A stretch of DNA of 64,000 nt from an uncultured Candidatus Saccharibacteria bacterium (GTDB lineage Bacteria; Patescibacteriota; Minisyncoccia; Phycocordibacterales; PALSA-1337), in contig CAZHHB010000002.1 of NCBI GenBank assembly GCA_964532285.1, positions 36,684 to 100,683 on the forward strand, read 5' to 3'. The position numbers were made by a program, and so were the translations under genes. Within the stretch, counting starts at the first letter, position 1. Each line of letters begins with the position of its first letter. Positions 15,363-63,292 of the stretch are shown here, one piece after another. Below the pieces are notes generated by a model, which saw nothing but the letters and a program-made list of their open reading frames with translations, searched no databases and was not told the DNA's origin.

Positions 15363-15505
15363 TGCCCTCTCGCCAGCCTGCGGAACTCGCTCGTTAAATT
15401 GCTAGGTAAAATGCTCAGGAATTATAAATAATTCCAACAACATTCGCATTTTACCAAGCAATTTATACTCACTCAGACAGTCCTCGGCTGTCTCGAAGAC
15501 AGATT
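15363..15505. repeat. Copy A of ~150-bp palindromic intergenic element (family L), extended by locus-specific IR cataatgaatctg / cagattcattatg
   Basis: Shares the core ...gaaattgctaggtaaaa.gctcaggaatt...aattccaac.acattcgc.ttttaccaagcaattt... with copies at 38941, 42325, 54150, 57577 and 63160. Confidence 0.8.
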
Positions 15506-15547
15506 CATTATGGGTACAAATAATAAGACATAAATCCGACCTATGTT

Positions 15548-17818
15548 TTATTTCGCAACCACCACTGCCTCTTCAAAAGCGATAGAGAGCAGACGAGACG
15601 AACCATCGTTGCCCATAGTCACACCATAGAGAACTCCAGCACGCGACATAGTTTCGCGATTGTGAGTAATCAAGATGAGTTGAGAATGTTTGGAGAGGTT
15701 CTCTATCATATCACCATACTTCTTGGAGTTAGCTTCATCCAGGGCCGCATCAGTCTCGTCCAAGATGATAAATGGCGGTGGATTGACTTGAGAGATGGCA
15801 AATAGGAGAGCAATAGATGTCAGGGCGCGCTCACCACCAGAGAGCATCATCAAACCTTTGACTTTCTTCCCTGGTAAACTAACATTTACTTCAATACCTT
15901 CTGGACCAGTTTCTTCATTTCCTTCGCCGATTGTCTCTGGCATGCCCGTATCTTCATTGAGCAGACTATCCAACTCTTCTTTATCACTATGTTTACGCCT
16001 GACAGGCTCTTTGACCAACGATAGTTGTGCCTTGCCTCCGCCGAACATCAGAGTAAAGAAGTTATGAAATTGCTCGTTAATCTTCAAAATGCCGTTTTTG
16101 AATTCGAAATCAATACGCATGTCCAGATCATTGACTAGGGTGTGTAGTTCCGTCTTGGCTTTTTCCAGATCCGCCAATTCTCTCACCAAGAAAGCATCTC
16201 TCTCTTCGGTTTCTTTGAACTCCTTCATCACCTCTGCCCCGCCTGCCGCACCGGAATCCTCAATTCTAATTTTATTTCTCTCAATCTTCTTGCGTCTTTC
16301 TTCTTGGAGAGAACGTAAATTAGAAATATCATCTTTAGACACTTGACCATCAGCATGATGGTAATCCACCGCTTCCCTACCAGCAATAATTGCCGCCTCA
16401 CCCAATTCACGCTTCAGATTTTCTTCTTCATGCAAGATGACGTTTGATTGCGCCGTCAAAACGGATATAACATTGCGAACTTCATTTTGTCTGGCAATAA
16501 TCCTAAAGACATCTTTCTCCGCTTCCCTATTCGTATCCTTTTCCTTTTCAATAGCATTTTTCAAATCATTGTATTCCCCAATCAGTTTTGATTCTGATCC
16601 TTCCAGATGTTTTATCCTCTCCTCCAAATCAGTGCGACCCTGAGACAATCTCTGTATCTCTTTTTCCAAATCAGCAATAACTACCGAATCATTCTTGGAA
16701 CGATGGCTGGCTATGAAATTCTTCAGAGTCGAGACCACTTCACTGAACAATTTCCTAGCATCTTCAATAGAATGGAAAGACTCTATGGTCTTCACGATAT
16801 CTTCTACATCCTTCACATAAACAGTTCTAGTCTCTTCATCCCGCAAACGATCCTCCTCTTTCTCAACAGCTCTCTTGCCAGCGTTGATTTCCCCTTCCAA
16901 TCTTCCAAGCTCTCGCATAACTACATCTTTCTCGCTCCGAGCATTTGCAATCTTTCCTTCTAAATCTATAATCCCATCACTCTTTTTATCTTTATTCTTG
17001 GAATCAGTCAGGATCTTCTTTGCTCTCTCCAGTTCAGCGTCCAGAGATGACATTTCTTTTCTAGGTCCAGATATCTCATTTGTGATCCTCTCCTTTTCAC
17101 TTTTTATGTAATGATCCTCGACCGCAAAATATTCCTTGTAAAGGATTATGAGCTCTTTACGTAATTCTTCTGTCTTCTCAAACTTCTCAACTTGCTTCTT
17201 CAAAAACTTGATATGTGGAGCGATCTCTCGACGCAGTGATTCAACCTGCTTCATATTCTCTTCTGTCTTTTCAAGCCTGCGCAAACTCTCCAACTTCTTC
17301 CACTGGTATTGTTTGAGTCCGAGTGCGTCCTCTACCATCTCTCTGCGTTCACGGATAGAAGCCGAGAGTATCCTATCAGCTTCACCTTGAGAGATTATAT
17401 GGTGTCCAGTGGATCCAATATGTGCACCTGAAAGCATCTCTACAATATCGCGAAGTCGGACTTGACTACCATTCAATAAATATTCATTGGAATTGTCTCT
17501 GTGAACAACGCGCTCCAAAGTCACTTCATCAAAATCAATATTGGGGAAGAGTTTCTTCCTATTATCAAAAGTAAGCTTCACACTTGCCCTATTGGCACGA
17601 CTATTGGTCTCGGCTCCATTCCAGATCATGTCTTCACCACGCTTACCGCGTAGTGATTTGATAGATTGCTCACCGAGAACGAAACGAAAGGCTTCAGCAG
17701 TATTGGATTTGCCGGAACCATTGGGTCCGACGATACCTGTTATAGAAGAAGTGAATTCCAAAGTCGCCTTTTTCGCAAAGGATTTGAAGCCGGAAAGTTC
17801 CAGAGATTTCAGATACAT
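15548..17818 (-). CDS. smc: SMC-family chromosome segregation ATPase (short form, 756 aa)
   Basis: N-terminal Walker A GPNGSGKSN, long coiled-coil middle, C-terminal signature LSGGERALTSIALLFA and Walker B ILDETDAALD. The hinge is not obvious at this length. Confidence 0.6.
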   Translation of the reverse strand: MYLKSLELSGFKSFAKKATLEFTSSITGIVGPNGSGKSNTAEAFRFVLGEQSIKSLRGKRGEDMIWNGAETNSRANRASVKLTFDNRKKLFPNIDFDEVTLERVVHRDNSNEYLLNGSQVRLRDIVEMLSGAHIGSTGHHIISQGEADRILSASIRERREMVEDALGLKQYQWKKLESLRRLEKTEENMKQVESLRREIAPHIKFLKKQVEKFEKTEELRKELIILYKEYFAVEDHYIKSEKERITNEISGPRKEMSSLDAELERAKKILTDSKNKDKKSDGIIDLEGKIANARSEKDVVMRELGRLEGEINAGKRAVEKEEDRLRDEETRTVYVKDVEDIVKTIESFHSIEDARKLFSEVVSTLKNFIASHRSKNDSVVIADLEKEIQRLSQGRTDLEERIKHLEGSESKLIGEYNDLKNAIEKEKDTNREAEKDVFRIIARQNEVRNVISVLTAQSNVILHEEENLKRELGEAAIIAGREAVDYHHADGQVSKDDISNLRSLQEERRKKIERNKIRIEDSGAAGGAEVMKEFKETEERDAFLVRELADLEKAKTELHTLVNDLDMRIDFEFKNGILKINEQFHNFFTLMFGGGKAQLSLVKEPVRRKHSDKEELDSLLNEDTGMPETIGEGNEETGPEGIEVNVSLPGKKVKGLMMLSGGERALTSIALLFAISQVNPPPFIILDETDAALDEANSKKYGDMIENLSKHSQLILITHNRETMSRAGVLYGVTMGNDGSSRLLSIAFEEAVVVAK

Positions 17819-17825
17819 AATTATA

Positions 17826-17880
17826 TTATACCCCGAGGTCCGACCTAGCGGTATCTAGGTCGGACCTAGCGGTATCTACC
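17826..17880. repeat. Divergent variant of palindromic repeat family P (ccgaggtccgacctagcggtat x2)
   Basis: Two tandem units gaggtccgacctagcggtatc / taggtcggacctagcggtatc. The palindrome is preserved with substitutions relative to ccaagatccgatcttggtata. Confidence 0.55.
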
Positions 17881-18583
17881 ACTTTTTTATCTCCAAAGCC
17901 TTCTCTGCCGCCATTTGTTCAGCCTCTTGCTTGGAAGCGCCAGCACCCGTGGCGATTTGCACATCACCGAGGAATACTCCGAGAGTGAATTGTTTGTTGT
18001 GATCAGGACCAGTCTCCTTCAATGTTTTGTATGACGGAGTGAGGCCGGCTTTCTCCTGGGCCCTCTCTTGGAAACGACTCTTGGCATCGAGCCAAGATTT
18101 CTTGGCTACAATGTCATCTATGTCTATGACATTCAAAATATGATCTGAGATGAAATTGGCCGAAGCATTATAACCCTGATCCATATAGATAGCGCCGATC
18201 AAGGCTTCAACAGCGTTAGCGAGGATGATAGAACGCGCACGACCAGTGTCTTTAGCCTCGCCTTTGGACATCAGGAGATAACTGTTCAAATCTAGATGTT
18301 CAGCCACCTTGGTCAGACTCACGGTATTCACTATAGCCGAACGAAAGGCTGTCAGCTCCCCTTCTGCTTTCTGTGGATATTTTCTAAATAGAAAACTAGT
18401 CACTACTAACTCCAAAACAGCATCTCCCAAAAACTCCAGACGCTCATTGTGTTCTATGTCTTCACCGCGATTTTCATTCAAAAAAGAACGGTGCGTGCAG
18501 GCATTACGAAGAAGTGCAGGATCATTGAACTGCACATTTATCTTTTTCTGAAAAGTTTCTAGGTTAGTCATATTATCCTTCAC
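17876..18583 (-). CDS. rnc: Ribonuclease III
   Basis: 235 aa; RNase III signature ERLEFLGDAVLELVV plus a C-terminal dsRBD. Confidence 0.9.
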   Translation of the reverse strand: MKDNMTNLETFQKKINVQFNDPALLRNACTHRSFLNENRGEDIEHNERLEFLGDAVLELVVTSFLFRKYPQKAEGELTAFRSAIVNTVSLTKVAEHLDLNSYLLMSKGEAKDTGRARSIILANAVEALIGAIYMDQGYNASANFISDHILNVIDIDDIVAKKSWLDAKSRFQERAQEKAGLTPSYKTLKETGPDHNKQFTLGVFLGDVQIATGAGASKQEAEQMAAEKALEIKKW

Positions 18584-19990: not shown

Positions 19991-20031
19991 ATGTTCGCAT
20001 ATAGTTCTTTTTAGTTTAATTAATTTTATTT

Positions 20032-20104
20032 CCGCCCATAGCTCAGCTGGTAGAGCAGATCCCTCTTAAGGATAAGGTCGTAGGTTCGATCCCTACTGGG
20101 CGGA
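20032..20104 (+). tRNA. tRNA-Lys (anticodon CUU)
   Basis: CCGCCCATAGCTCAGCTGGTAGAGCAGATCCCTCTTAAGGATAAGGTCGTAGGTTCGATCCCTACTGGGCGGA. Anticodon loop CTCTTAA; T-loop GGTTCGATCC. Confidence 0.85.
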
Positions 20105-20132
20105 CTCGCAAAGTTATAAAGTTATTTGACCC

Positions 20133-20214
20133 GCCGGGGTGGCGAAATTGGTAGACGCACTTGGCTTAGGACCAAGCGGAGTAATCCATGGAGGTTCGAG
20201 TCCTCTCCCCGGCA
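20133..20214 (+). tRNA. tRNA-Leu (anticodon UAG), long variable arm
   Basis: GCCGGGGTGGCGAAATTGGTAGACGCACTTGGCTTAGGACCAAGCGGAGTAATCCATGGAGGTTCGAGTCCTCTCCCCGGCA. Anticodon loop CTTAGGA. Confidence 0.85.
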
Positions 20215-20500
20215 CACATCTCGTATACCACTAGCAAGCCCCCTGCGGGGCTTGCGTCCAAGACTCGAACGGCGGAGCGATGTTTCGCGCACCAGCGCGA
20301 AACCGCGAGCCGGTGGCTAGCCCGAACGAGCGGGTAGCGAGTGAGAGGCGAAGCCGAGTCCTCTGTACCGCGCCTGTAAGGCGAGAGTCCTCTCCCCGGC
20401 ACTTCTACGCTCTTCACTCGCTACGCTCATTCAGAGCTACGAAGTGCAGGCACAATAGAATGTTTTTTATAAGATACCGCATAGATAACTATAGTAGTCA
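20215..20500. other. GC-rich (~65%) structured non-coding segment carrying an 18-bp direct repeat of the tRNA-Leu 3' end (att-like scar)
   Basis: gagtcctctccccggcac occurs at 20189-20206 (within the tRNA) and again at 20385-20402; gagtcctct also occurs at 20359. Several GC hairpins are present (agcaagcccc/ggggcttgc; tttcgcgc/gcgcgaaa). Confidence 0.5.
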
Positions 20501-20537
20501 ATATTGTTTTTTATTTTTGAAATGAGAAAATTATGGC

Positions 20538-21368
20538 ATGGAAAAAGAGAAAAAACATTTAGCTATATTTGAAAGTAAACAGATTCGCCGACACTGGGAT
20601 GATCAGTCGGAGAAGTGGTATTTCTCCGTGGTTGATGTAGTGGGTGTATTATCTGAAAGCACAGACCCGAGGAACTATTGGAAGGTCTTGAAAAACAGGT
20701 TAAATGCGGAAGGTAGTGAGTTGGTTACAAAATGTAACCAACTGAAAATGAAATCATCTGATGATAAGTATTATTTAACTGATGCCGCTGACACCGAAGT
20801 ATTATTACGCCTCATCCAATCAATTCCATCCCCCAACGCCGAACCATTCAAGCTATGGCTTGCCAAGGTCGGCTATGAAAGACTAGAAGAAACCGCTGAT
20901 CCAGAGCTTGCTATCAATCGTGCCCTGAAGACTTATTTGGCAAAGGGCTATTCACCAGCGTGGATAATGCAGAGGTTGAAGAGTATTGAAATTCGCAAGG
21001 AACTTACTGATGAATGGGAGAAGGCAGGGGTTAAAGAGGGTCTAGAATTTGCCATCCTTACAGATGAGATTACCAAAGCATGGACAGGCATGACTACCCG
21101 TGAATACAAAAATCTCAAAGACCTCAAAAAGGAGAATCTGCGTGACAATATGACCAATCTTGAGTTAGTTCTCAATATGTTGGCTGAGACCGCTACTACG
21201 GAGATTTCCAAAAAAGTGGAGCCGAAAGGGTTGGAACCGAGTAAGAAGGTTGCTAAGAAAGGAGGTCAAATTGCCGGAAATGCTCGACGACAAGTGGAAG
21301 CGGAAACTGGAAAACCTGTTATTACTGGTGATAATTGGGAGACTAGAAAGAACAAATCACTCAAATGA
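20538..21368 (+). CDS. Bro-N domain protein, DinD-like (DNA-damage-inducible protein D family)
   Basis: 276 aa. The N-terminal KWYFSVVDVVGVLSESTDPRNYWKVLKNRL is Bro-N-like. The C-terminal region resembles DinD/KilA-C-like antirepressor proteins. Confidence 0.5.
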   Translation: MEKEKKHLAIFESKQIRRHWDDQSEKWYFSVVDVVGVLSESTDPRNYWKVLKNRLNAEGSELVTKCNQLKMKSSDDKYYLTDAADTEVLLRLIQSIPSPNAEPFKLWLAKVGYERLEETADPELAINRALKTYLAKGYSPAWIMQRLKSIEIRKELTDEWEKAGVKEGLEFAILTDEITKAWTGMTTREYKNLKDLKKENLRDNMTNLELVLNMLAETATTEISKKVEPKGLEPSKKVAKKGGQIAGNARRQVEAETGKPVITGDNWETRKNKSLK

Positions 21369-21455
21369 ATATAACCAGGCTATCGAAGATATAATTAAAC
21401 TAATAAAAAAGGCGCACACAGTGAAGTGCGCGCCCTGTGATAAAGAACTTGGAAA

Positions 21456-22553
21456 CTAACCCTTGCCACCGTAACCGCCTGGCGATACCAGCTTAATCCC
21501 TTGGGAGATGATGTGGTACACACCCTCAAGGGTATTCGTAACGGTTGTCTTCGTCTGGGGATCCAGTAATGCGGGAACCTCGATCTTTTTGCCAGTCGCC
21601 TGGTTTTCGAGCACATACGAGGTAGCAGCTTGCCCACCAGAAGTGTATGTGTGTAGAACGACGTTCGTCGTCGGTTTGTCAAATGTGACAATACCCAACG
21701 GGATGTTGCCGTACTCATTCCCCTCACCATCCTTCCAAGTCCAGACAACCATCGTCAAGTCGCTCGTGTTCTTGAAGGAGACGAGGTCACTTGAGTTTTG
21801 CAACAAAACCCTGACCTCCACGGGCGTAAGTGTAACCGGAGAACCGTCCTTGAGTGAGATCGTCTCTTGAAAATACGACCACACATTATCACCGGCCGGC
21901 TTCCATCCCGAGATGGCTATCACCCCGTTGCCGGCGTATTGGGATTGGAAATAAAAACCGTCACTATCCGTCCTCAAGGACACTGGATATGGGTTATTAT
22001 TGTTGGAGTCGCGAACGATGAGTCGCACCCCTCTCAACTGTACGCCGTTGGGCACCGCAATCTTGACTTCCGATGATAGGTATAAACCCACCATCTCTGC
22101 CCAATCTGGCAGTAGCCACCGACCATACTTGTCTTGGTAAGGTTGTGATGTGCTACCGCCACTGAATAGTGGCTGTGGTTTGTTCCCCGACCAGCGAATC
22201 TGATTCCAGTTGTTTGTGCTGTACAGATCCATGCTGATGGAGAAGTAGTCCTTCGGCGAAGTAACCTGCAAAACCCAGCGTTCGTTGACCAGCAGTTCCA
22301 TGATCCCTTCAAGAGTTTTGATCTTGTCGTTGTATTCATAGAACCGCTCGTTGTACCCATTGTCAGCCGTATCGCTGCCACAGGTCACATTCACCGCAAC
22401 CCCCTGCACCTGTTTGAAGGCGTAGGAGATCAGGGCGGTCCGATTGGTAAGCATGGACAAGTCCATGTTCACAGCAGTCTGCGCTTGAGTTTGCACTGGC
22501 ATCCAAATGCCGAGGCACAGGAAACCGACGATTAGTGTGAGTATGTTTTTCAT
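21456..22553 (-). CDS. Secreted hypothetical protein (signal peptide), GC-rich
   Basis: 365 aa; signal peptide MKNILTLIVGFLCLGIWMPVQTQAQT. Elevated GC compared with core genes. Confidence 0.5.
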   Translation of the reverse strand: MKNILTLIVGFLCLGIWMPVQTQAQTAVNMDLSMLTNRTALISYAFKQVQGVAVNVTCGSDTADNGYNERFYEYNDKIKTLEGIMELLVNERWVLQVTSPKDYFSISMDLYSTNNWNQIRWSGNKPQPLFSGGSTSQPYQDKYGRWLLPDWAEMVGLYLSSEVKIAVPNGVQLRGVRLIVRDSNNNNPYPVSLRTDSDGFYFQSQYAGNGVIAISGWKPAGDNVWSYFQETISLKDGSPVTLTPVEVRVLLQNSSDLVSFKNTSDLTMVVWTWKDGEGNEYGNIPLGIVTFDKPTTNVVLHTYTSGGQAATSYVLENQATGKKIEVPALLDPQTKTTVTNTLEGVYHIISQGIKLVSPGGYGGKG

Positions 22554-22607
22554 CTATCGCTCTCTCTTTCTTTGTTTGTTTTTTTGGTTTTTGTTTGTTA
22601 CCGCAGA

Positions 22608-22874
22608 TTACTTCAGCGTGATTTTGGTCACGCGAACCGTGACGTGATTTGTGTCCACAGGCCGTTCGGCACGAACAGTGTTACTGGAGGAGTTCTGCCC
22701 CCGCGAGGGATTCTGCTGATTCCTCACAGTCTCATCCACCTTGGACGCACCGTAAATCAACATACCGACGAAGGCCAAGACGGCGACGATCGAAAAGGCA
22801 CAAATCACCCAGATCACACCCCTTGTCTTCTCTTCCCGTTTTTCCTGCTTCCTGACTGTATTAACCTTTTTCAT
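22608..22874 (-). CDS. Small membrane protein, hypothetical
   Basis: 88 aa; K/R-rich N-terminus then one TM (VIWVICAFSIVAVLAFVGMLIY). Confidence 0.35.
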   Translation of the reverse strand: MKKVNTVRKQEKREEKTRGVIWVICAFSIVAVLAFVGMLIYGASKVDETVRNQQNPSRGQNSSSNTVRAERPVDTNHVTVRVTKITLK

Positions 22875-23160
22875 ATTATTTTGCTTTCAAACTGCGTTTC
22901 TGTCGTTTTTTCTGTCTCCAAATGAAAAGTGGCCCGTATAGCCATATCCATTAACTGGCAAGAGTGTATCAGACTAGTTGGCAGATGTCAATACTTAACT
23001 TGACAAGAACAACTCATAATGCTAACATGCAACCAGTACGCACAGTCTGCTTGAACCTTCAAATGTTCGCTTTGCGGATATGAGATGGGGCGGATTGATA
23101 ACATACCTAGGAAACTAGGATCATAATAAATGGCGATAAGCCATTAGCAGAAAGAACAGT

Positions 23161-23838
23161 ATGAGCACACAAGTAGCAGGAACGGCAACGAGCACGGAAG
23201 GACCAACACTTCTCGTGCTTGAAGAGAAACAGCCGATGACCACCGAAGCCTACGACTGGATGATGAGTATCAACTCTCTTCCTGGGTGCGGACTCTCCCC
23301 AATTCGTTTCATTGGGTTGAAAAACATCGAAAGGCTCTCGGAAGCCCTCGGACACCAGATAACCCTTGAGGAGGCGAAGATACTCGTCCGGTTGGACGGT
23401 GACAAAATGAAGTGCGATGATACTGAGAGGGAGTTCCAACCAATCGCATACTGGCCGTACATCAACGCGGACATGGAGAAGGACCTCGCGTCCGGGAAAA
23501 CACTGGCTGAAATCTCCGTGCCCTTTGGCGGAGCCTTCTTCCTCGAAGGCAAACAGATCTTCGCCTTCTCCGGACCGGTTTACGACAAACTCGGGGCTAG
23601 CTGGATGAATGAAAGCCCGCTTGTCAAAGCGTCAAAAGAAGCCGGCTTCATCAGGAAACTCAAACGCCCGATCTGGGGGAAATGCTTCCAGGTGTTGGCG
23701 GACTATCTGTCTGACGAGGTGGAGAGGAAGAGGCGTCAGCAAGAAAGCCGGGACCGCATCAAAGACAAGTTCTCTGGGAAAAAGCGGGGGCTGAATAAAC
23801 TGAACAATGTTTTTGCCTCGCTGGAACTGGAGGATTAA
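23161..23838 (+). CDS. Hypothetical protein (GC-rich island gene)
   Basis: 225 aa complete ORF with a protein-like composition. The antisense ORFs in this region are R/W/C-rich, which suggests they are artefacts. Confidence 0.4.
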   Translation: MSTQVAGTATSTEGPTLLVLEEKQPMTTEAYDWMMSINSLPGCGLSPIRFIGLKNIERLSEALGHQITLEEAKILVRLDGDKMKCDDTEREFQPIAYWPYINADMEKDLASGKTLAEISVPFGGAFFLEGKQIFAFSGPVYDKLGASWMNESPLVKASKEAGFIRKLKRPIWGKCFQVLADYLSDEVERKRRQQESRDRIKDKFSGKKRGLNKLNNVFASLELED

Positions 23839-24034
23839 CACCCGAGATCAAACAAGATCAAAGAGCCCGCATGTCTACATGCGGGCTCCCTTTTTATATG
23901 TAATATGGAACAAGCCTTGACATCACTATTGTAATGATATATAATGCTCGTCAGTGATTAAAGTTGTTTTGACAACAAATAGAAACGAAAACAAAGACCA
24001 CGAGCGATCGTAGGTCACAACCACAAGGAAACAA

Positions 24035-25534
24035 ATGAAAAGCAACCCAGCGGGATTGCCCGCAGTGAAAGGGTTCAGTCTGAACCATCCGTTTCAGGTG
24101 ACTTGGGGAGAAATTCCCAATACCGAATACATCACGACCGTGATCATCCCTCCCGATGGGAAGAGGATGAAGGGCACCAAGACCAAGAATAATGGTCTTG
24201 ATATCAGGGTCCTGAAAAACATCCCCGGGGAACATATCCTCGAGGTGTTGGCTACTACTCCTGACGGCTCCAGTAAGGGGCCGGCTGGGCGAGTCAGCTT
24301 CAAGATCGTGAATGAAAAAGTGGAGGAGTTCAAGGAACTGCCTCCCGAGGAAGAAGATGAGGACGAGGATCCAAACCAAATCCCCAACTTGTCGGGCGGA
24401 ACGGGATCGACCGCCGGAACTGGAACGGGCACTTCGCCCGCGCCGAATCCGACGCCTGGGTCCGGAGCTGGTCCGGTGAATCGTCCCGCCGGTCCCGTGA
24501 GTCAGCCGACTTCGGGAACCGCGAGTCACGACCTCAGTCTGGCCTTGAACCATCTGGGTGAGGGAATCAAAACCCTGGTCTCTCAGGGTGTGGCAAATAC
24601 AAACTCGCTCCGCACCTTGGCGGAAAGCAACAAGGGATTCGCCGAGGGATTCAGTTCCCTCAGTAGCGAGAATGGACCGCTGGCACAGATGACGCAGCTC
24701 CACGGCAAAACAGCGCTGGCGTTGGATGGGATTCTGATTAAACTCAACCAACTGCCGCCCGCCGCCATTACTACGCCCACCGGTACTGTGGCGACGACCG
24801 GAGTTCAGCAAAAGCCGCAGAAGACCAAAAAGTCCGGAAACGGGAAGTGGTGGCTGCCGGCTGTTGCAATCGTCGCAATGGTTGCGCTGGTTGCATTCGT
24901 TGCCATGAAATCCATGAATAACCTGACCCAAACTCCCCCTCCCGCCCAGTCGATTGAAACCGATAAAGCGGTGATGGATGCCCGAAGAATGGCAGTGGAG
25001 GCCAACAGTAAGGCCAACGAGATGCAGCAGCAGGTGGAAGCCATTCACCGCGAGTTGAACAAACCCGCGCCGGCTCCCATCGCACAGCCGATAACGGTGA
25101 ATGTTGTTGTGACGAACAACAATATCAACAACAACTGTTGTGGGGAAAGGCAAAAGGCGGAAACGCCTGCTGTCCAACCCCCGCCAGTTCCGGCTCCGAC
25201 TGCCCCACCCCAACCGGTGGCACAGGTTCCACAGCAAAAGGGTTATTGGTACCAAGAAGTGGTGCCCGTAGCTCAGACGGTTCAGACTTATGTGGAACCA
25301 CAACAAGTTGTGATCCAGCAGCCTGGATTCAATGGGTATTACTATCAACCGTACGGGCCATCCTGCGGAACTTCCGTTGGATTCCGTGTCGGTATCGGTG
25401 GTGGCTACGGCGGTGGTGGTGGAGGCTATTGTCCTCCGCCGGCACGCGGGGGGTTCTACTCCCCGACACAGTTGAGTCAACCATGTCCACCACAAGGTGG
25501 AGGTGGTCGCGGTGGCCATGGTGGTCGCCGATAA
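24035..25534 (+). CDS. Pro/Gly/Thr-rich low-complexity membrane protein, hypothetical
   Basis: 499 aa with a central TM (WWLPAVAIVAMVALVAFVAM), PAPxP repeats and a Gly-rich C-terminus. The antisense 536-aa ORF has R/W/C-rich composition typical of a GC-rich artefact. Confidence 0.45.
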   Translation: MKSNPAGLPAVKGFSLNHPFQVTWGEIPNTEYITTVIIPPDGKRMKGTKTKNNGLDIRVLKNIPGEHILEVLATTPDGSSKGPAGRVSFKIVNEKVEEFKELPPEEEDEDEDPNQIPNLSGGTGSTAGTGTGTSPAPNPTPGSGAGPVNRPAGPVSQPTSGTASHDLSLALNHLGEGIKTLVSQGVANTNSLRTLAESNKGFAEGFSSLSSENGPLAQMTQLHGKTALALDGILIKLNQLPPAAITTPTGTVATTGVQQKPQKTKKSGNGKWWLPAVAIVAMVALVAFVAMKSMNNLTQTPPPAQSIETDKAVMDARRMAVEANSKANEMQQQVEAIHRELNKPAPAPIAQPITVNVVVTNNNINNNCCGERQKAETPAVQPPPVPAPTAPPQPVAQVPQQKGYWYQEVVPVAQTVQTYVEPQQVVIQQPGFNGYYYQPYGPSCGTSVGFRVGIGGGYGGGGGGYCPPPARGGFYSPTQLSQPCPPQGGGGRGGHGGRR

Positions 25535-25561
25535 ACAATAGTTCCTTGTTCCAACACACAT

Positions 25562-25600
25562 CCCTCGCGCAGACTACAGAGTCTGCCGAGGGTTGTTTTT
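25562..25600 (+). terminator. Terminator-like hairpin gcagact..agtctgc followed by a T-run
   Basis: gcagactacagagtctgc is followed by cgagggttgttttttg. Confidence 0.5.
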
Positions 25601-25809
25601 TGTACTAAAAACTATCACAACACATAAATAAATTTTTGAATACTTGTGCAGAAACTAAAATCTTTGATAAAATTTAAGTATCAGTAGGTAGATTTGCTCA
25701 CGTCAAAGACGAAGGAACTACAATTAAATAATCCGAGGGCGCGCAGAGCCATCACAATCCACTTTTATGAATAAGTGGAAATTTTTTATTAAATTAAATA
25801 AACACGATC

Positions 25810-26799: not shown

Positions 26800-26852
26800 T
26801 TAAACCTATCATCTAAGCCATTCTAAGCCATATTCTCATTATTACATTTCCC

Positions 26853-26881
26853 TTGACATCCACCTCCAAAAATGATACAAT
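26853..26881 (+). promoter_or_regulatory. Sigma70-like promoter (TTGACA, 17-nt spacer, TACAAT)
   Basis: ttgaca at 26853-26858, 17-nt spacer, tacaat at 26876-26881, upstream of the SPFH-like gene. Confidence 0.4.
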
Positions 26882-27009
26882 ACGGGACAGTTAAGTCAGC
26901 AGTGTGATATTCGTGTGAGTGTCCCTGCGTTGACAATTTGAATAGAAAAAACGACAAAAACAATACTTCCCTACAAACGGGAGGTTACAAAATCGGAGGA
27001 AAGAGAGTT

Positions 27010-28607: not shown

Positions 28608-28648
28608 AAAACAGGCCACAGAGTAATATCTGCGGCCTGTCTTTTTTT
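28608..28648 (+). terminator. Rho-independent terminator (acaggcc...ggcctgt, T7)
   Basis: acaggccacagagtaatatctgcggcctgt followed by ctttttttg. Confidence 0.6.
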
Positions 28649-28678
28649 GTCCGAGGCCTACCCTTCGGAGGCCTTACA

Positions 28679-28978: not shown

Positions 28979-28984
28979 TGATAA

Positions 28985-29901: not shown

Positions 29902-29918
29902 ACGGATGATTGTTATTA

Positions 29919-38924: not shown

Positions 38925-38940
38925 GAATATTTTAAGAGTC

Positions 38941-39095
38941 TGGCGATACGTCTTCGAGACAGCCGAGGACCTGTTTGAGCGCAGTAGAAATTGCTTGGTA
39001 AAAGGCGAATGTCGTTGGAATTGTTTACAATTCCTGAGCCTTTTACCTAGCAATTTCACGAAGCGAGTTCCGCAGGCTGGCGAGAGGACGTATCA
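38941..39095. repeat. Copy B of ~150-bp palindromic element (family L), opposite orientation to copy A; locus-specific IR tggcgatacgtc / gacgtatcacca
   Basis: About 90% identical to the reverse complement of copy A, between the convergent genes rpsA and pth. Confidence 0.8.
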
Positions 39096-39109
39096 CCAGA
39101 CTCAAAAGA

Positions 39110-42317: not shown

Positions 42318-42324
42318 TTATACT

Positions 42325-42480
42325 GTGCTTGTGATATGTCTTCTAGCGAGCCGAGGACCTGTTTGAGCAGAGTATAAATTGCTAGGTTTTTATGCTCGGA
42401 CTGCCAGATGCCCCGTGAGCGTAAAAACCTTGCAATTTAACGATAGCGAGTCCCGCAGGCGAGTGAGAAGATATATCACA
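42325..42480. repeat. Copy C of family L palindromic element (degenerate core); locus-specific IR tgtgatatgtcttct / agaagatatatcaca
   Basis: Shares the arms cgagccgaggacctgtttgagc...gaaattgctagg and ...caatttaacg.tagcgagtcccgcagg. The central part is replaced. Confidence 0.65.
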
Positions 42481-42518
42481 GGCACAGTACACAACAACTA
42501 TTCAACCAACCAAATCAC

Positions 42519-52116: not shown

Positions 52117-52129
52117 TATCTTGTCCAAA

Positions 52130-52170
52130 TCCAAGATCCGATCTTGGTATACCAAGATCCGACCTTGGTT
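52130..52170. repeat. Two family P palindromic units (ccaagatccgatcttggtata / ccaagatccgaccttggttga)
   Basis: Immediately downstream of the terminator. Confidence 0.75.
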
Positions 52171-52241
52171 GACTTATAACCCATTTTTATGCTTTACTTA
52201 TGGGACGAGCCACGGGCTCTTCTTTTTATCTTCCAAACCAA

Positions 52242-54149
52242 ATGGATATCAGAAACATCGCAATTATCGCGCACGTTGACCACGGCAAGACCACTCTTAC
52301 CGATGCCATTATGACCCAGTGTGGCCATGGTGACGAAGGAACAATGGACTCAAACGCCCTAGAACAAGAGCGCGGTATTACTATATACGCAAAGAATACC
52401 TCTATTATATACAAGGATAGCAAGATAAATATTGTTGATACTCCTGGACACGCCGATTTCGGCTCAGAGGTGGAGCGTGTCTTGCGTTCTATTGATACTG
52501 TTCTCTTGGTCGTCGATGCTCAAGAAGGTCCGATGCCACAGACGAGATTCGTTTTAAAAAAGTCTTTGGAATTGGGGCTGAAGCCAATCGTAGTTATAAA
52601 TAAAATAGACAAACCAGCAGCGAATCCTATGCGCGTGCACGATGAAGTATTGGAGCTATTTATGGAATTGGGTGCCAACGACGAGCAGATTAACTTCCCT
52701 ACTATATATGCAATCGGCCGTACTGGTGTGGCGAAGAGGAAGATGGAAGATGAGGCGAAAGATTTGACACCATTACTTGATGTCATACTTGAACATGTAC
52801 CTCCGGCAAACAGACAGCCGATGGCAGGAGAAAGCGGTTCGATGGACACGCTGTCAGAGCCTGCTGGCTCTGCAGCTAGTTCTCCCTCGCCTTCGCTCAG
52901 TCCGAAATGTCCATCGCCCTCGCTTTCTCCTGCCATCGGCTCCACCACTACCCTTACCGCGCAAGTCTTCAACCTCGGTTATGACAATTTCCTCGGAAGA
53001 TTGGCAGTCTGCCGTATATATACTGGAGTTATCAAAAATGGTCAGAATGTCTGGGTCAAAGATATAAATGGCAAATCATTTACTGGAAAAATAACAAAGC
53101 TTTTTACATTCAGCGGCAAAAAGCGTCTGGAGACAGAAATGGCCGAATCAGGAGATATTGTAACTGTTGCTGGCATGCCTGATATCTATATCGGCGAGAC
53201 AATCACTGATAATGAAAACATTTCTGCTCTCCCGGCAATCACCGTTGATGAACCTACTATTTCTCTACAATTCTTGGTCAACAATTCCCCTTTTGCTGGC
53301 AAGGAAGGAACTTTCGTTACAGGCAGACAGATCCGCGAACGCTTACAGCTTGAACTAGAGACCAATGTCGGCTTGAAAGTAGACTTTTCTCAAAACGAAT
53401 ATTTCACCGTCTATGGTCGCGGAGAACTCCACGTCGCTATATTGATTGAAAATATGCGCCGTGAAGGTTACGAACTGCAAGTCTCCCAACCAAAAGTTAT
53501 AACAAAAGAAGAAAATGGCAAAACCTTGGAACCTTTTGAAGAAATGATCATAGATACGCCACAGGAATATTCTGGAGCTATTATCGAAACTCTAGGCAAG
53601 CGCAAAGGTATCATGCATGACATGAAGAATCATGGCAATCAAGTGCGTATGGTTTTCGAAATACCGACTCGCGGACTACTTGGTTATAGGAATGCATTTA
53701 CTATAGATACAAAGGGCGAGGGTATCATGTCTTCACGCGTGATCGGATTCAAAGAGCACGCCGGCGATATAGAGAAACGCGAGACTGGATCCATGACTTC
53801 TATGGTATCTGGCAAATCATTTGGATTTTCACTATGGAATCTGCAGGATCGCGGACGCCTATTCATCATCCCGGCTATGGAAATATATGAGGGTATGGTT
53901 ATCGGCGACACATCCAAGGGTGACGATTTGGAAGTTAATCCCTGCAAAGGAAAACAGCTATCCAACATGCGTTCATCTGGTAAGGATGAGGCTCTGACTC
54001 TCGTACCACCTTTTACTTTGAGTATTGAACGCGGTCTTGAACTGATGCGTGATGATGAATACTTAGAAATCACCCCAAAGAGTGTAAGGTTGCGCAAGAA
54101 ATTTCTAACTGAATTGGATAGGGCCAGAGCGAGAAGGAAGGATTTGTAG
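52242..54149 (+). CDS. typA: Translational GTPase TypA/BipA with a ~45-aa Ser/Pro-rich insertion
   Basis: Start at MDIRNIAIIAHVDHGKTT; G-domain DTPGHADF, NKID. The GC-rich insertion ...GESGSMDTLSEPAGSAASSPSPSLSPKCPSPSLSPAIGSTTT lies between domains G and II. Confidence 0.9.
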   Translation: MDIRNIAIIAHVDHGKTTLTDAIMTQCGHGDEGTMDSNALEQERGITIYAKNTSIIYKDSKINIVDTPGHADFGSEVERVLRSIDTVLLVVDAQEGPMPQTRFVLKKSLELGLKPIVVINKIDKPAANPMRVHDEVLELFMELGANDEQINFPTIYAIGRTGVAKRKMEDEAKDLTPLLDVILEHVPPANRQPMAGESGSMDTLSEPAGSAASSPSPSLSPKCPSPSLSPAIGSTTTLTAQVFNLGYDNFLGRLAVCRIYTGVIKNGQNVWVKDINGKSFTGKITKLFTFSGKKRLETEMAESGDIVTVAGMPDIYIGETITDNENISALPAITVDEPTISLQFLVNNSPFAGKEGTFVTGRQIRERLQLELETNVGLKVDFSQNEYFTVYGRGELHVAILIENMRREGYELQVSQPKVITKEENGKTLEPFEEMIIDTPQEYSGAIIETLGKRKGIMHDMKNHGNQVRMVFEIPTRGLLGYRNAFTIDTKGEGIMSSRVIGFKEHAGDIEKRETGSMTSMVSGKSFGFSLWNLQDRGRLFIIPAMEIYEGMVIGDTSKGDDLEVNPCKGKQLSNMRSSGKDEALTLVPPFTLSIERGLELMRDDEYLEITPKSVRLRKKFLTELDRARARRKDL

Positions 54150-54321
54150 ACGAGCCCTGCAACATGTTTTTCACCAGCCTGCGGTACTCGCTCCGTGAAA
54201 TTGCTAGGTAAAAGGCTCAGGAATTATGAATAATTCCAACGACATTCGCCTTTTACCAAGCAATTTCTACTGCGCTCAGACATGTCCTCGGCTGGCTCTA
54301 AAACATGTTGCAGGGCTCGCT
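54150..54321. repeat. Copy D of family L palindromic element, flanked by an 18-bp locus-specific perfect IR (gagccctgcaacatgttt / aaacatgttgcagggctc)
   Basis: Core ...gaaattgctaggtaaaaggctcaggaattatgaataattccaacgacattcgccttttaccaagcaattt..., between the convergent genes typA and the bPH-AlbA_2 gene. Confidence 0.8.
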
Positions 54322-56800: not shown

Positions 56801-56928
56801 GTGAAGGTGACGAATGTATGTTTCGAGGAAACGAACGGAGCCTTGCAAGGCTCCGTTCTCGGCTTCGGAAATTTTCTGCTGAAAATTTCCTGCAGATGTT
56901 CCTCGAAACATACATTCGTCACCTTCAC
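56801..56928. other. 128-nt three-hairpin palindromic element: a perfect 30-bp inverted repeat enclosing two internal stem-loops, directly after the hisS stop
   Basis: gtgaaggtgacgaatgtatgtttcgaggaa (56801-56830) pairs with ttcctcgaaacatacattcgtcaccttcac (56899-56928). Internal stems are aacggagcc/ggctccgtt and ggaaattttc/gaaaatttcc. Confidence 0.6.
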
Positions 56929-57560: not shown

Positions 57561-57576
57561 GATTGATGGCCCCAGT

Positions 57577-57726
57577 GAATATGTCCTCTCGCCAGCCTGC
57601 GAGACTCGCTTCGTGAAATTGCTAGGTAAAAGGCTCAGGAATTGTAAACAATTCCAACGACATTCGCCTTTTACCAAGCAATTTCAACTCGCTCAAACAA
57701 GTTCTCGGCTGTCTCGAAGACATATT
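57577..57726. repeat. Copy E of family L palindromic element; locus-specific IR gaatatgtc / gacatattc
   Basis: Same orientation as copy A, between the convergent exonuclease gene and the giant surface protein gene. Confidence 0.8.
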
Positions 57727-57739
57727 CACTGGGGTCGTG

Positions 57740-60700
57740 CTATTTCAACCCAAAGAATGCTGCGATAGCATCCCATATAGATGAATTAAGATTTCTAGGA
57801 TTTATTCTCGTCACTGGTGATTCTGATGGATCTGGTTCTGGTGAAGCTGAGGGATCTGGTTCTGGTGTTGGTGATGATTCTGGTGAAGCTGATGGGGTTG
57901 GAGTGGTGGTTGTTGTTGGAGAGGCTGTCGGAGAAACTGTAGGTGATACTGTAGGTGTCACTGTTGGTGAAACTGTAGGAGATGCTGTTGGGGAAACCGT
58001 TGGTGTAACTGTTACTGTAGGTGTTGGGGTCGGTGAGGTCGTAGGAGATATTGTTGGAGATACAGTCGGTGATACTGTAGGAGTAATAGTTACTGTGGGT
58101 GTAGGAGTCGGGGTTGGGGTGGCGGTAGGAGTCGGTGTTGGGGTTGGTGAAGGGCAAATAAATGAAGGCATCGGGATTAAAGAAGGTGGTGTAGGTGTTG
58201 GAACCACAGCACTTGGTGTAGAACCAGGTGATGGCGATACCGACGGTCTCGGTATCGCGGTTGCGGTTATACTATCTATTCGCCATGGGAAAATTGGGCT
58301 TAATGGAAGACTAGGTGGTCCTTTTAAGAGAGTGACTGTAAATTCAAGGGATACCTCTTGAGACCATTCCTGATCTGGGAGTGGATTAATAGCAAAAGGA
58401 TCACTGATGAAAGTATTGTCGTAAAGTCTAAATTCATTGCTAGCTACAAATTCTTCAAGTGAATGAATAACATACCATCTACCACCTATAAGATAATACC
58501 TTTCTCCACTATGTTCTATATATTCTAGCAATGAGGCGTTATCAAGAATTAACGTTATATTTATACTCGCAGGATCACACTCTCCTACTTTTGAGTTCTT
58601 GAACAAAGCTCTCCATGGATGTGTTACATCTCGATTAGAAATAGTTCGCTCCATAATCGATGTACCAGTACATGCACTTCTCCGTACCGAACAATTAATT
58701 GGAGTCGGGGTCGGCGTTGGCGACACTGATGATCTGGCAACGACAGAAATACTCGGTGTGGGCGTGCTTCCCGGAGAGACGGCAGGGGTCGGAGTGGCTG
58801 ACGAAGCGGGAGATGGTGATACTGAGGAGACTGGAGACAGATTCTGGTCACCGACAATCAAAGACACAGTGGAGGAGATGGTGGAAACAACAGACTCTGT
58901 AATTCTTTGTACGCGTGAAGATATAGTATTTTGGGCGCGAGATATTACCCTACTCAGGAAACCTTGTGGCTTATCTTCCATGGTGACTATCAAAGACTCT
59001 GGCGATGAAGATGTAGCTTGAGGGGACGGTATGGCTTTAGGGGATGGCAGAATCGTTATTTGCGATGTGGCACCAACTGCATAATTAGGATTATCCTTGA
59101 AATATACATAGAAATTCGGAACAACGTACTGTGGCCAATCTGCTTTACTTGAAAAGGAAAACTCTGTAGCTCTAATCGATGTATTGGGGAAAATGTACCA
59201 TTTATTACACAGGTCTGTGCCATCTGTTCCATTTCCACCTACAGAAGTGACCCCCGATGGACAATGCAGGAATAGTTTTGTGGACACAGCACCTCCCGGG
59301 ACTTCATAATTCAATGTTACTGTCTCCCCCGATGTAATCCTGTCTTTATCAGGAGTTACTGATTGAACCATTGTCGGGGCGGATATACTAATACGAGCAA
59401 TATTACTCGCACCAGTTTTCGGATGAGTAACTTGGACGACATAGTCATCCGGCACAGTATTTGGGATGAACTCTAGAGATGTACCGTCTTTTGAGGAAAC
59501 AAGATACTGTCTAAAACTATCACAAGCAAATCCCTCTGGACATTTTGATTCCACAGAACTCAGAGTAACCGTATTCTTCTCTACCGTGGAAAAACGTGCA
59601 CCGGAGACTGTAATCAATTCATTAGATGGAATCTTCTCAGGCGAGACAGAGTTGATATATGGAGATTTTTCACCGACGACAACCACTGTATTGGTAGTAT
59701 TCGGCGTAGGGATTGTTAAATATATTGGATTACTATAATAATCACCGAGCATAATCCTGTCCAATACGCCATAATACGCGCCGGCAAACATATTCTTTAT
59801 ATTAAAAGATGTACTGACATTAAATATTGCTGTGGTATTTGCAGGGATAATATAAAAACCATTACCGTCATCGGTGGTACCAGAAGGTTGTGCATATTGT
59901 ATGGATAATGCCTGGGCATAGATATCACTATCTGTCTTTGCATATGTCCAAATAGCGTAATCTTTGGCAATTTTCTGACTTCTATTGCCAGCTGTAACTG
60001 CAATGTTGAATGTACTTATTAAAGCACTCTCATCGCCGCCTGGTCTGTCATAAGACAGAGAAAGAGTTGAGCTACCAACGATATTAACTGAGGGTGCTGT
60101 AGATGTTCCCGATGAGTTGATTCTAAAATAATTACTCTCCCCTCCTATGTTTGTATTTCTGTATCGCAATGATATTTTGTATTGACCAGGATCAATGTCT
60201 ACCAATTCCCATGAACCACGACCATTGCCACCTGGTGCATTGCTGTATTCATACACCTTACCAACTTCCCATGTGTTTGTATTTTCGCTAGATGAGATAC
60301 TATTATCAGGATTTGAAATATAATGACCACCCCTATCTGAACTAGTAATTATTATCTCCATGGGCTGATTCGGGGTACCGCTCCATTTAATCTGATACAA
60401 ATCCCCAAAAGCTAGTTTATCGTCTGCTTTTGGAGAAATTATCTCTATAGGATCGAAGTAACCGAGATCTAGACTGCCAGTTTTTGCTTCGAGTGTGAGT
60501 GGTGTGACATTATTATTCGGTTGGAAACTATTCATCTGAATATAGTATGCGTCTTTCAATAATTCTCCTGAATTTATCGGTGCACTTAGAGAAAATCTGA
60601 CTGTGGAATTCGGCGGTATGGAGTAATATGGTCCAGCATAATCTTCAATATTTCCAGATATCGGAGAATATTCAAAATCAATATCCTTTTGATCAATACC

Positions 60701-62221: not shown

Positions 62222-62313
62222 ATCTCAATTATACTCAATAGAATAACATCTTGATAGTTGATAACTTTCACAAAAAATATCGGTTAAGTCCTAAAATAAG
62301 GTACAATATTTCA

Positions 62314-63129
62314 ATGCATACAGACAAGATCGTAAAATCTGGCATTTATGTTTTCGCCCTCATCGGCTTTGTCATGACTTCTGGATATGTTGCCGTAAGA
62401 ATGGGTATAACAAATGAAAAAGGTGTAATCGACAACCAGAGAGCCAGTTTTTTGGAATCAACCTCAAATACTGGCGCAAATCCAACCACTCCCGATTGGG
62501 TTTCAAGTGAAGAGTGGCGGATCTTGAAACAGGCAATTATAAAAGATGCGCCCGTTATCTATAAAGTAGCTGGCATAACAGATATAGAACCGCGTTTGAT
62601 CGTAACTTTATTGGTTCCGGAACAATTACGACTTTTCCATGATAATAGAGAGGTATTCAAACAGATTTTTGCTCCACTCAAGATTCTTGGCAGTCAAAGT
62701 CAGTTCTCCTGGGGCATTATGGGCATCAAACATAATACCGCCGTTGCTATTGAAAAGAACCTGAAAGACACAAGCTCGTCATTTTATCCTGGGAAAGAGT
62801 ATGAGAACTTACTTGATTTTACTTCCAGCGATATTGAAAATGAACGCTTCATACGGATAACTGATGATAAAAATCACTATTATGGTTACTTATATGCCGC
62901 CCTCTATGCAAAACAAGTCATACAGCAATGGCAAAAATCAGGTTTTGATATTTCCGAAAAACCCGATATTCTAGGCACACTTTATAATATTGGTTTTAAT
63001 AATTCACATCCCAATCCCGATCCGCATTCAGGTGGTGCAATTATTGATATAAGCGGTAAAGAGTATAGTTTTGGTTCTTTGGCAGATGAATTTTATCGTT
63101 CAAATGAGTTAAAAGAGTATTTTCCCTAA
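62314..63129 (+). CDS. Hypothetical membrane-anchored protein
   Basis: Start at MHTDKIVKSGIYVFALIGFVMTSGYVAV (signal anchor); the ORF could extend to 62251. Confidence 0.4.
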   Translation: MHTDKIVKSGIYVFALIGFVMTSGYVAVRMGITNEKGVIDNQRASFLESTSNTGANPTTPDWVSSEEWRILKQAIIKDAPVIYKVAGITDIEPRLIVTLLVPEQLRLFHDNREVFKQIFAPLKILGSQSQFSWGIMGIKHNTAVAIEKNLKDTSSSFYPGKEYENLLDFTSSDIENERFIRITDDKNHYYGYLYAALYAKQVIQQWQKSGFDISEKPDILGTLYNIGFNNSHPNPDPHSGGAIIDISGKEYSFGSLADEFYRSNELKEYFP

Positions 63130-63159
63130 TAAGGACTCACGGAACTCGCAAAGGTGTCT

Positions 63160-63292
63160 TTGGGGTAGTCGAGGACATGTCTGAGCGCAGTAGAAATTGC
63201 TTGGTAAAAGGCGAATGTCGTTGGAATTATTTATAATTCCTGAGCCTTTTACCTAGCAATTTCACGGAGCGAGTACCGCAGACTACCCCAGA
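63160..63292. repeat. Copy F of family L palindromic element; outer stem ggggtagtc / gactacccc (a compensatory variant of cagcc/ggctg in other copies)
   Basis: Core about 95% identical to copy B, with flanking IR ggtgtctttggggtagtc / gactaccccagaggcacc. Confidence 0.8.

Follow-up and report, generated by a model that had tools for sequence, protein, structure and literature searches.

Family L: a palindromic repeat at six gene ends whose stems run on into copy-specific sequence

Family L is a dispersed palindromic repeat found in six copies in the 64 kb of DNA analysed here, which is called the window below and to which all copy counts and open reading frame (ORF) scans are restricted. The core of the repeat measures ~135-150 bp, every copy is intergenic, and L has spread to at least six gene ends. 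Its housekeeping neighbours are mreB, smc, a gene with an S1 domain, pth, ybeY, ftsA, typA, hisS, an RNase_H_2-like gene and a DsbA-like gene. The nearest homologues of flanking genes (TypA and FtsA) all come from Patescibacteria, labelled Paceibacterota, Parcubacteria or Taylorbacteria, so that the host, judging from these matches, is a bacterium of the Patescibacteria or candidate phyla radiation (CPR) and is Paceibacteria-like. Known cyanobacterial MITEs (miniature transposons with inverted repeats), or a cyanobacterial origin, were considered and rejected, because the flanking genes and every close homologue are those of Patescibacteria.

Six copies behind genes

The six full hairpins are given below. 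By convention, copies B, C and F are in the “forward” orientation and A, D and E are reversed; the first distance on each line runs from a stop codon to the start of the hairpin on the forward strand of L.

Copy A, 15348..15516, (-): perfect outer arms of 17 bp (15348-15364 / 15500-15516); 31 nt 3' of the SMC stop codon and upstream of mreB, with its forward strand co-oriented with both genes
Copy B, 38936..39103, (+): outer arms GAGTCTGGCGATACGTC / GACGTATCACCAGACTC with one C.A mismatch; 11 nt 3' of the stop codon of the S1-domain gene, with pth convergent and its stop codon 6 nt off
Copy C, 42321..42489, (+): the divergent copy, with outer arms of 24 nt that are 92% complementary, both mismatches being G.T; 3 nt 3' of the ybeY stop codon and 29 nt ahead of ftsA
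Copy D, 54151..54319, (-): perfect 20-bp arms (54151-54170 / 54300-54319); 3 nt from the stop codon of a convergent Schlafen/bPH_2 gene, filling the gap so that the typA stop codon is 1 nt off
Copy E, 57570..57734, (-): perfect 16-bp arms (57570-57585 / 57719-57734); 5 nt 3' of the stop codon of a gene for a 1493-aa protein, facing the convergent RNase_H_2 gene; forms the left edge of an insertion of 5.7 kb relative to related genomes
Copy F, 63133..63313, (+): arms of the terminal segment homogenised (TTTGGGGTAGTC / GACTACCCCAGAG, two T.G pairs), with an extra outer stem GGACTCA / TGAGTCC past a 9-nt bulge; 3 nt 3' of the stop codon of a gene for a 271-aa protein and 31 nt ahead of the DsbA-like gene; right edge of the 5.7-kb insertion

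Copies B, D and E thus lie between convergent genes, and A, C and F lie in tandem contexts, where the forward strand of L is the sense strand of both neighbours in 3/3 cases. A preliminary description of this DNA had already placed the six copies correctly, 3' of genes and three times between convergent pairs, but it drew the hairpins shorter than they are. A profile built from the six-copy alignment (nhmmer) matches exactly these six in the window, with E-values of 1e-39 to 1e-55, and finds no further full or partial copy there. The junctions between L and the nearby genes are independently confirmed by the ends of Logan contigs from the same organism (L022, L023, L027 and L028; ~2.7-5.5 kb), which stop inside copies C, E and F and inside another hairpin at 9198-9359. 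Reads of this organism are present in runs ERR3094292 and ERR3094302.

The cores are 89-96% identical in pairwise comparisons. In a repeat scan, B and E agree at 96% over 111 nt, D and F at 94% over 130 nt, B and D at 89% over 148 nt, and A and F at 94% over 78 nt. The window holds 10 occurrences of the 19-mer core AAATTGCTWGGTAAAAGGC, where 0.02 are expected; five of the copies have it twice each. The best-conserved parts of L are two poorly paired internal-loop segments, GCCGAGGAC.TGT.TGAGC and AGCGAGT.CCGCAGGC, which are retained even in copy C, the apical segment of which differs from that of the other copies. The core also holds long dyad-symmetric motifs, GGAATTnnnnnnAATTCC together with a 19-bp inverted repeat. 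There is no conserved ORF in L, and most frames carry stop codons or have no start codon.

The preliminary description gave each copy its own perfect, locus-specific inverted repeat as a flank. The flanking repeats are indeed perfect in A, D and E, but as quoted they contain one C.A in B, one G.T in C and two T.G in F. The locus-specific character holds for only about the outer 6-12 bp of each arm. The inner ~8-10 bp can be aligned across copies (consensus TGAATATGTC...GACATATTCA) and are therefore the diverged end of the element itself, not flank. The ends of the element, TGAATATGTCTTCGAGACAGCC / GGCTGGCGAGAGGACATATTCA, pair imperfectly (11/14 in the inner part) and vary between copies in a mirrored way: they differ by substitutions and by a one-base deletion that appears on both arms (GAATAT vs GATAT). 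The terminal segment has two arms that are unlike each other in most copies, but in copy F they have become nearly identical.

Folding, covariation and strand

Each copy taken with its flanks forms a single long hairpin of 165-180 nt. For example, copy E folds with a minimum free energy of -90.3 kcal/mol as RNA and -51.9 kcal/mol as DNA, which corresponds to z = -12.1 and -12.8 against dinucleotide shuffles. When the six hairpins are aligned, 95.8% of the cells are in standard pairs. Changes on both sides of a pair are seen at 23 of the 62 pairs, compared to 9.8 +/- 2.2 in shuffles, and none of the 500 shuffles reaches 23; in slid controls, in which the partner was moved by 1-3 columns, only 3-8 pairs are double-sided. 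The covariation first noticed in the outer stem (cagcc/ggctg vs tagtc/gacta), which corresponds to two C-G to U-A swaps in copy F, is correct and is part of a wider pattern.

Most of these double-sided pairs (19/23) fall in the outer helix. The outermost columns are not homologous, so the double changes there merely restate that each copy has its own inverted repeat. Homologous columns carry double-sided changes as well: columns 58/129 go from G-C to U-A in A and C, columns 75/111 from G-C to U-A in A, columns 94/99 from A-U to G-C in the apical stem and columns 39/143 from G-C to A-U in E. Several more fall within the last 8 bp of the element in B, A, D and F. In C, an arm has a stretch of A-U to U-A swaps, and swaps of this type are seen in the stem of its differing apical segment. 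The compensatory changes inside the conserved core include transversions. Pairing in L is thus maintained by compensatory changes, and the double-sided pattern could also be produced by template switching.

The two strands of L are not equivalent. In every one of the six copies, the forward strand gives the more stable fold of the two, and this strand is sense to the gene immediately upstream. For a strand-neutral count of wobbles, the left arm of each copy was set against the reverse-complemented right arm; 25 mismatches read as G.U on the forward strand and 8 on the reverse strand, counts that are not independent of each other since some mismatches are common by descent. This G.U asymmetry and the orientation rule are what one would expect if the forward strand were transcribed along with the upstream gene, and not what one would expect of a site in double-stranded DNA. 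L is therefore probably transcribed as the 3' end of the upstream mRNA, as far as position and strand can tell. As the tail of that mRNA, it would form a hairpin of 165-180 nt with about 70-80 bp, and it could then serve as a 3'-end structure, that is, as a terminator substitute, an exonuclease block or a site for RNase III (the window carries an RNase III gene at 17876-18583). The suggestion that selection acts on a long hairpin, one of two alternatives raised in the preliminary description, gains from the compensatory changes in the core, the strand stability and the wobble counts, but it is insufficient alone.

A rho-independent terminator has a GC-rich stem of about 5-14 bp, a short loop and, directly after it, a U-tract, and L does not have this form. 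A T-run follows the stem in D only (CTTTTAC), and none is present on the forward strand in A, B, C, E or F. Consensus scans for promoters and terminators list no L copy, though the terminator at 45997-46022 is detected, and their counts are at shuffle level. Canonical terminators are present elsewhere in the window, for example at 23863-23888 and 45997-46022, and the outer stem of D is in the style of their stems.

One could consider that L acts as DNA, either as a palindromic binding or structural site (centromere-like, nucleoid-organising or replication-related) or as the inverted ends of composite segments such as the one from E to F. The long dyad-symmetric motifs of the core and its 19-bp inverted repeat would suit such a site, as would the presence of six copies within 48 kb and the fact that the inverted copies E and F bound a 5.7-kb segment missing in relatives. 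Recognition of double-stranded DNA leaves the strand-asymmetric tolerance of mismatches unexplained, however. The outer stems of E and F are unrelated to each other, there is no duplication around the 5.7-kb segment, and the remaining four copies are not paired off around any insert. A role at the level of DNA, in either form, is scarcely credible.

Relatives, searches and known repeats

Related metagenomic contigs with conserved gene order (L024, L026, L029/L030, L031, L032 and L034) are 66-80% identical to the window in coding regions. A search of eight loci from relatives with the L profile gave no match, and the gaps of relatives that correspond to the B, C, D and E/F sites are free of L; at this distance the comparison gives no precise empty site. 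At the D site, the 27-bp gap in L026 is a perfect palindromic bidirectional terminator, AAATAAAAAAGGAGGTT|AACCTCCTTTTTTATTT, and L031 has a hairpin with an 11-bp stem, ATGCGTCGAAA-tctt-TTCGACGCAT. The B site of L029 has a canonical terminator 3' of the S1 gene. At the C site, L032 has a hairpin with a 13-bp stem, and the gaps of L029 and L034 (51 and 40 bp) are free of hairpins. The right arm of C was considered as ancestral sequence common to the L029 gap, but the match is not significant (p = 0.45). Since L is missing from every orthologous gap that could be compared, where relatives have short unique hairpins or plain gaps (and ordinary terminators at two of the sites), it is a recent, lineage-specific occupant of gene ends. 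Recent multiplication is also indicated by the identity of the core copies (89-96%), set against flanking genes that have diverged from those of relatives by 20-34%.

Copies E and F, in inverted orientation, bound the 5.7-kb segment 57570-63313. In L024 and L026, the RNase_H_2 and DsbA genes are only 39-41 bp apart, without this segment and without a hairpin between them. The segment encodes the 1493-aa protein, which has no Pfam match and contains 12-nt tandem repeats (57866-58129), and the divergent 271-aa gene; E and F each lie behind one of these genes. At the D site, the outer stem of the copy, CGAGCCC(TGC), is GC-rich over 7-10 bp, is followed by CTTTTAC and is terminator-like, and its register relative to the downstream stop codon is the same as that of the L026 terminator.

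The other alternative in the preliminary description was insertion into the loops of existing terminator hairpins, such that orthologous sites in relatives should carry intact hairpins. They do so at D (L026 and L031), at B (L029) and at C in L032, but not at C in L029 and L034 or at E/F in L024 and L026. The terminators at the D site in two relatives and the register of the D stem speak for such insertion, and the lack of a loop remnant, the rarity of T-tracts and the hairpin-free C and E/F sites speak against it; taken by itself, it does not suffice either. An inverted repeat in L029 (19014-19159, 21 bp and perfect) was set aside as a parallel case because it flanks a run of N and may be a scaffolding artefact.

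The search for L beyond the window used an exact 19-mer in the DNA databases, so diverged relatives would be missed. On that basis, L was not found in 185,579 species genomes or in metagenome or viral contigs. Matches to the exact 19-mer number 9 among species genomes and 12 among metagenome contigs, and viral contigs give 0. These were rejected as copies of L, since ~9 single chance matches are expected in 596 Gb and only the 19-mer aligns in a profile search. Translated L peptides had no match among 5.8 billion proteins. At the gathering thresholds of Rfam 15, the whole window yields three tRNAs and no match to L, and a permissive Rfam search of copy B gave only two chance matches to microRNA hairpins (E 1.7 and 6.7). 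A ribozyme or known RNA motif was rejected as an identity for L, there being no Rfam match even at E of 10 or less. In the literature consulted, no description of such repeats in CPR bacteria was found.

These results bear on the idea that L is not mobile at all and that the copies are paralogous structured RNA genes or cis-regulatory RNA motifs, in which the core is kept for a function of its sequence and the closing stem is free to change as long as it pairs. L does show the compensatory pairs and strand-specific tolerance of G.U that mark structured RNAs in general. Its poorly paired internal-loop segments are the most conserved, even in C, covariation is seen in all helices, and the forward strand folds better, has more G.U pairs and is consistently oriented. 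On the other hand, no Rfam family matches even at E of 10 or less, L is missing at the same sites in syntenic relatives and from the genome, metagenome and protein searches (for DNA, within the reach of an exact 19-mer), and the close identity of the copies compared to the divergence of the genes points to recent multiplication. That L is a set of RNA genes or cis-regulatory RNA motifs is improbable.

A second possibility is that L is a classical MITE, that is, a deletion derivative of an insertion sequence (IS) moved by a DDE transposase, with identical terminal inverted repeats and a direct target duplication. L is ~150 bp long, intergenic, without coding capacity and present in multiple copies with no transposase gene of its own; it has imperfect terminal inverted repeats with possible 5'-TG...CA-3' ends, and it is present or absent at orthologous sites. 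What it lacks is a direct target-site duplication of fixed length. No direct duplication is common to the copies at any choice of boundary, and the scan turned up just an 8-mer in D that is complementary to itself and, at a level expected by chance, a 7-mer in A. The latter, TGAATCT around copy A, was rejected as a target duplication because it has no counterpart in other copies. Moreover, the termini differ in a mirrored way that a single transposase would not favour, and none of the ~50 ORFs scanned is a transposase. A classical MITE is very improbable here, and the absence of a consistent direct duplication bears out the earlier view that a simple transposon is unlikely.

Among known systems, L is closest in general form to the ERIC, Correia (NEMIS), BOX and RUP repeats, which are MITE-like, intergenic and co-transcribed and form long RNA hairpins (PMC3184786, PMC3049150). 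Like them, L is an imperfect palindrome of 100-170 bp with many copies and no coding capacity; it lies behind genes, often between convergent genes, its orientation follows the coding strand, and its termini would pair in a transcript. Unlike them, it has no TA or other direct target duplication, its stem runs on into 6-12 bp of copy-specific complementary sequence, its termini vary in a mirrored way, and it has a CPR host and no sequence similarity to any of them.

Another comparison is with REPINs, which are doublets of repetitive extragenic palindromic (REP) units that form hairpins and are moved by RAYT transposases, with a proposed single-stranded hairpin stage (PMC3116915). Both are dispersed hairpins of ~70-110 nt or more in which two-sided compensatory changes are common and classical target duplications are missing. 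However, the layout is reversed: in REPINs the outer ends are conserved and the middle varies, whereas in L the middle is conserved and the outside varies. L does not follow the REPIN plan, in which the 16-mers at the outside of an inverted pair of REP units are conserved and the spacer varies but still pairs. It has no GTAG-type REP motif, and the 64-kb window has no gene for a RAYT (Y1 HUH) transposase. Several insertion sequences (IS1397, ISKpn1, IS621 and ISPpu9/10) target palindromic REP units (PMC1525189). As with L, the mobile element then sits within a palindrome, the halves of which become inverted flanks; in those cases, however, the transposase recognises a repeated target and short direct repeats are usual, whereas the flanks of L are all different and have no direct repeat. 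SPRITE and other terminator-like repeats have been suggested as stand-ins for terminators (PMC3049150). L shares with SPRITE a preference for places only a few bases from the 3' ends of genes, above all where two genes converge, but SPRITE has an 18-bp stem and a long U-rich tract, and L has a ~75-bp stem and, in five of six copies, no U-tract. L is thus a new family of the same general kind as ERIC, Correia, BOX/RUP and REPIN, with no sequence relatives found.

Proposed nesting and template switching, and the hairpins of the clade

Template switching is a known source of hairpins. During replication it gives arms that are reverse-complement copies of each other, it creates and maintains hairpins, and it can produce perfect stems and multi-base “compensatory” changes in one step (PMC8794818). 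The description of this process concerns rRNA and other RNA genes compared across species, and does not extend to copy-specific stems around a dispersed repeat. L resembles such hairpins in its continuous junctions and mirrored terminal changes, and a further likeness is found within typA, upstream of copy D.

The typA gene (52200-54149, (+)) contains an in-frame palindrome of 126 nt (52816-52941) with perfect 21-bp arms, in the region of a variable surface loop of the protein. Its orthologue in the relative P0010/L031 (about 2560-2700) has the same core and encodes SPSPSLSPK, and its arms are different yet complementary. Relative to L031, the window hairpin has a 12-nt insertion, CCTGCCATCGGC, that matches the reverse complement of the opposite arm exactly. 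The stem of the L031 hairpin is formed instead with the neighbouring CACCACTCACT, and the window homologue of CACCACTCACT is unpaired just outside the hairpin. Going by these aligned sequences, the 12-nt insertion is a direct footprint of template switching, in a hairpin other than L. The TypA hairpin is more stable on the antisense strand, and other relatives have unrelated insertions in the same loop (e.g., P0007, VIPAKAGIQ...RGND). Rickettsia palindromic elements (RPE) reportedly insert in frame into protein genes, a finding ascribed to Ogata et al. in 2000. The 126-nt TypA hairpin is like RPE in being a palindromic insert, in frame, in a surface loop of a conserved protein; L is unlike them in that its six copies are all intergenic, and there is no sequence relation. 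RPE are among the elements listed in PMC3184786.

The account favoured here, at about even confidence, is that L is a lineage-restricted, non-autonomous dispersed palindromic repeat that acts as a 3'-end hairpin, is nested in local hairpins and is healed by template switching. In the first step, L would land in, or be tolerated only in, local gene-end hairpins, such that the halves of the local stem become its inverted flanks; insertion sequences inside palindromic REP units are a precedent for such nesting (PMC1525189). In the second step, template switching during replication, in which one arm is copied as the reverse complement of the other, would heal the junction and lengthen the stem. 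The outcome would be continuous, often perfect helices and mirrored changes in the termini of L itself. Nesting fits with the fact that every copy is flanked, with unique stems of 6-12 bp, a length usual for terminator stems (those of empty hairpins in the window measure 11-13 bp), with the T-tract kept by D and with the unique hairpins of relatives at the same gene ends. Both nesting and reverse-complement copying, we think, act on L.

Several points weigh against this account. The helices are continuous through the junction in A, C, D and E, with no loop remnant, and B has a single C.A exactly at the junction; such remnants would be expected after plain loop insertion, which is why a second, healing step is needed. 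The C site has no hairpin in two relatives and the E/F site has none in 2/2, no ancestral empty state of any L site was recovered from a close relative, and the template-switch footprint comes from a different hairpin (TypA) of the same genome. L is not a canonical intrinsic terminator, D alone having a T-tract. Transcription and a 3'-end role are read only from position, orientation and the G.U asymmetry, in which the 25:8 counts are not independent. Finally, there is no transposase, RAYT/Y1, integrase, reverse transcriptase or other mobilising gene among the ~50 window ORFs.

Some of these points could be explained if the copying mechanism itself made the inverted flanks. After L has integrated beside some sequence, fold-back synthesis (self-primed or by template switching) from the base of the hairpin would write that sequence in reverse complement on the other side of L, giving an “inverted target duplication” with no need for a prior hairpin. 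Such a process agrees with pairing that runs across the junction without a break, perfectly so in A, D and E and nearly so in B and C, with the narrow size range of the unique stems (6-12 bp), with the lack of a hairpin in relatives at the C and E/F sites, with the 12-nt reverse-complement insertion in TypA and with unrelated single-copy hairpins of the window that have longer perfect arms (30, 21 and 18 bp) than the 13-bp maximum of empty hairpins. Against it, the outer stem and T-tract of D are in the same register as the terminator of relatives, no ancestral arm can be identified at any L site, the unique stem is not constant in length, and no enzyme is known or found. Flank copying without a prior hairpin is a tentative alternative, less probable than nesting with healing. 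In its broader form, held just as tentatively, L and the other long hairpins of the clade would be self-lengthening palindromes, in which fold-back or template switching, each time a copy is made or replicated, would copy the flank in reverse complement and repair the arms against each other. If true, repeats would be spreading and hairpins arising in a way not yet described for bacterial dispersed repeats, and L would be a natural system where “compensatory evolution” is mostly mutational and not selective.

In copy F, the unpaired bulge in the left flank, CGGAACTCGC (63140-63149), is the reverse complement of the right-arm motif GCGAGTTCCG of copies A and B, a match with a chance expectation of roughly 0.03. 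The bulge may be a further template-switch footprint or the relic of an older copy.

The window has other palindromes as well. The one at 56801-56928, which begins on the first base past the hisS stop codon, consists of a perfect 30-bp inverted repeat around a 68-nt insert that comprises two small hairpins; it occurs once in the window and has no significant similarity to L, and the gap at the end of hisS in relatives is either 3 bp or 69 bp with a small terminator. The hairpin at 9198-9359, upstream of a class II aminoacyl-tRNA synthetase gene, has 18-bp perfect arms (9201-9356) and a 120-nt interior. Two TGTGGATAA motifs that resemble DnaA boxes (9168-9190) adjoin it, and the region 9168-9359 may be origin-related. 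A superfamily joining L to the hairpins at 56801 and 9198, the TypA element, L024:997, L031:1878 and 55392 by termini like AATATGTCTT was considered and dropped; local alignment scores between L and other long hairpins are not above those of shuffles (p 0.1-0.6).

A second short palindromic family, CCAAGATCCGATCTTGGTATA, has at least 15 units, placed in short gaps that follow genes; many are paired into inverted or tandem dimers. One dimer is a perfect 42-bp palindrome, there is no T-tract, and the family is probably another repeat that takes the position of terminators. Its units are at the following places.

4214
17836-17867
32722
35873-35921
37441-37482
45543
47038-47079
47670-47713
48891
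52129-52177

The part of the window from 20000 to 31400 stands apart in composition (G+C 0.47 vs 0.42). It follows three tRNA genes and carries Bro-N and RhuM/Fic genes and several ORFs without a family match, and then six tandem paralogues resembling type IV secretion system pilins (28679-31393). This block is probably an integrated mobile element or a variable region.

Related CPR genomes have gene-end palindromes of their own, for example at 2612-2711 and 18515-18630 in L026, 906-1292 in L036, and 13568-13701 and 8184-8408 in L032. Their families include inverted GTCATTCCCGCGAAGGCGGGAATCC pairs behind ftsZ and dsbA and nested hairpins with arms of 33-36 nt; the L036 hairpin at 996-1239 has 33-bp perfect arms. 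Such arms, in the window and in relatives alike, are far longer than those of any empty terminator, and long hairpins whose outer stems are freshly perfect thus seem to characterise the clade, each sequence family being specific to its genome.

CPR genomes are very small and are usually described as streamlined, yet in these 64 kb, where intergenic gaps of any size are few, six of them are taken up by L. This means that selfish or co-opted hairpin DNA still shapes gene ends in such small genomes. Hairpins of the L type also fragment short-read assemblies and create spurious ORFs, which is relevant to the annotation of metagenome-assembled CPR genomes. The lineage shows conserved cores with fresh, perfect, locus-specific stems, together with orthologous TypA hairpins the arms of which have been lengthened differently. 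Family L is a compact test case for the old question of whether matched changes in an RNA stem arise from selection or from template switching that writes both sides at once.

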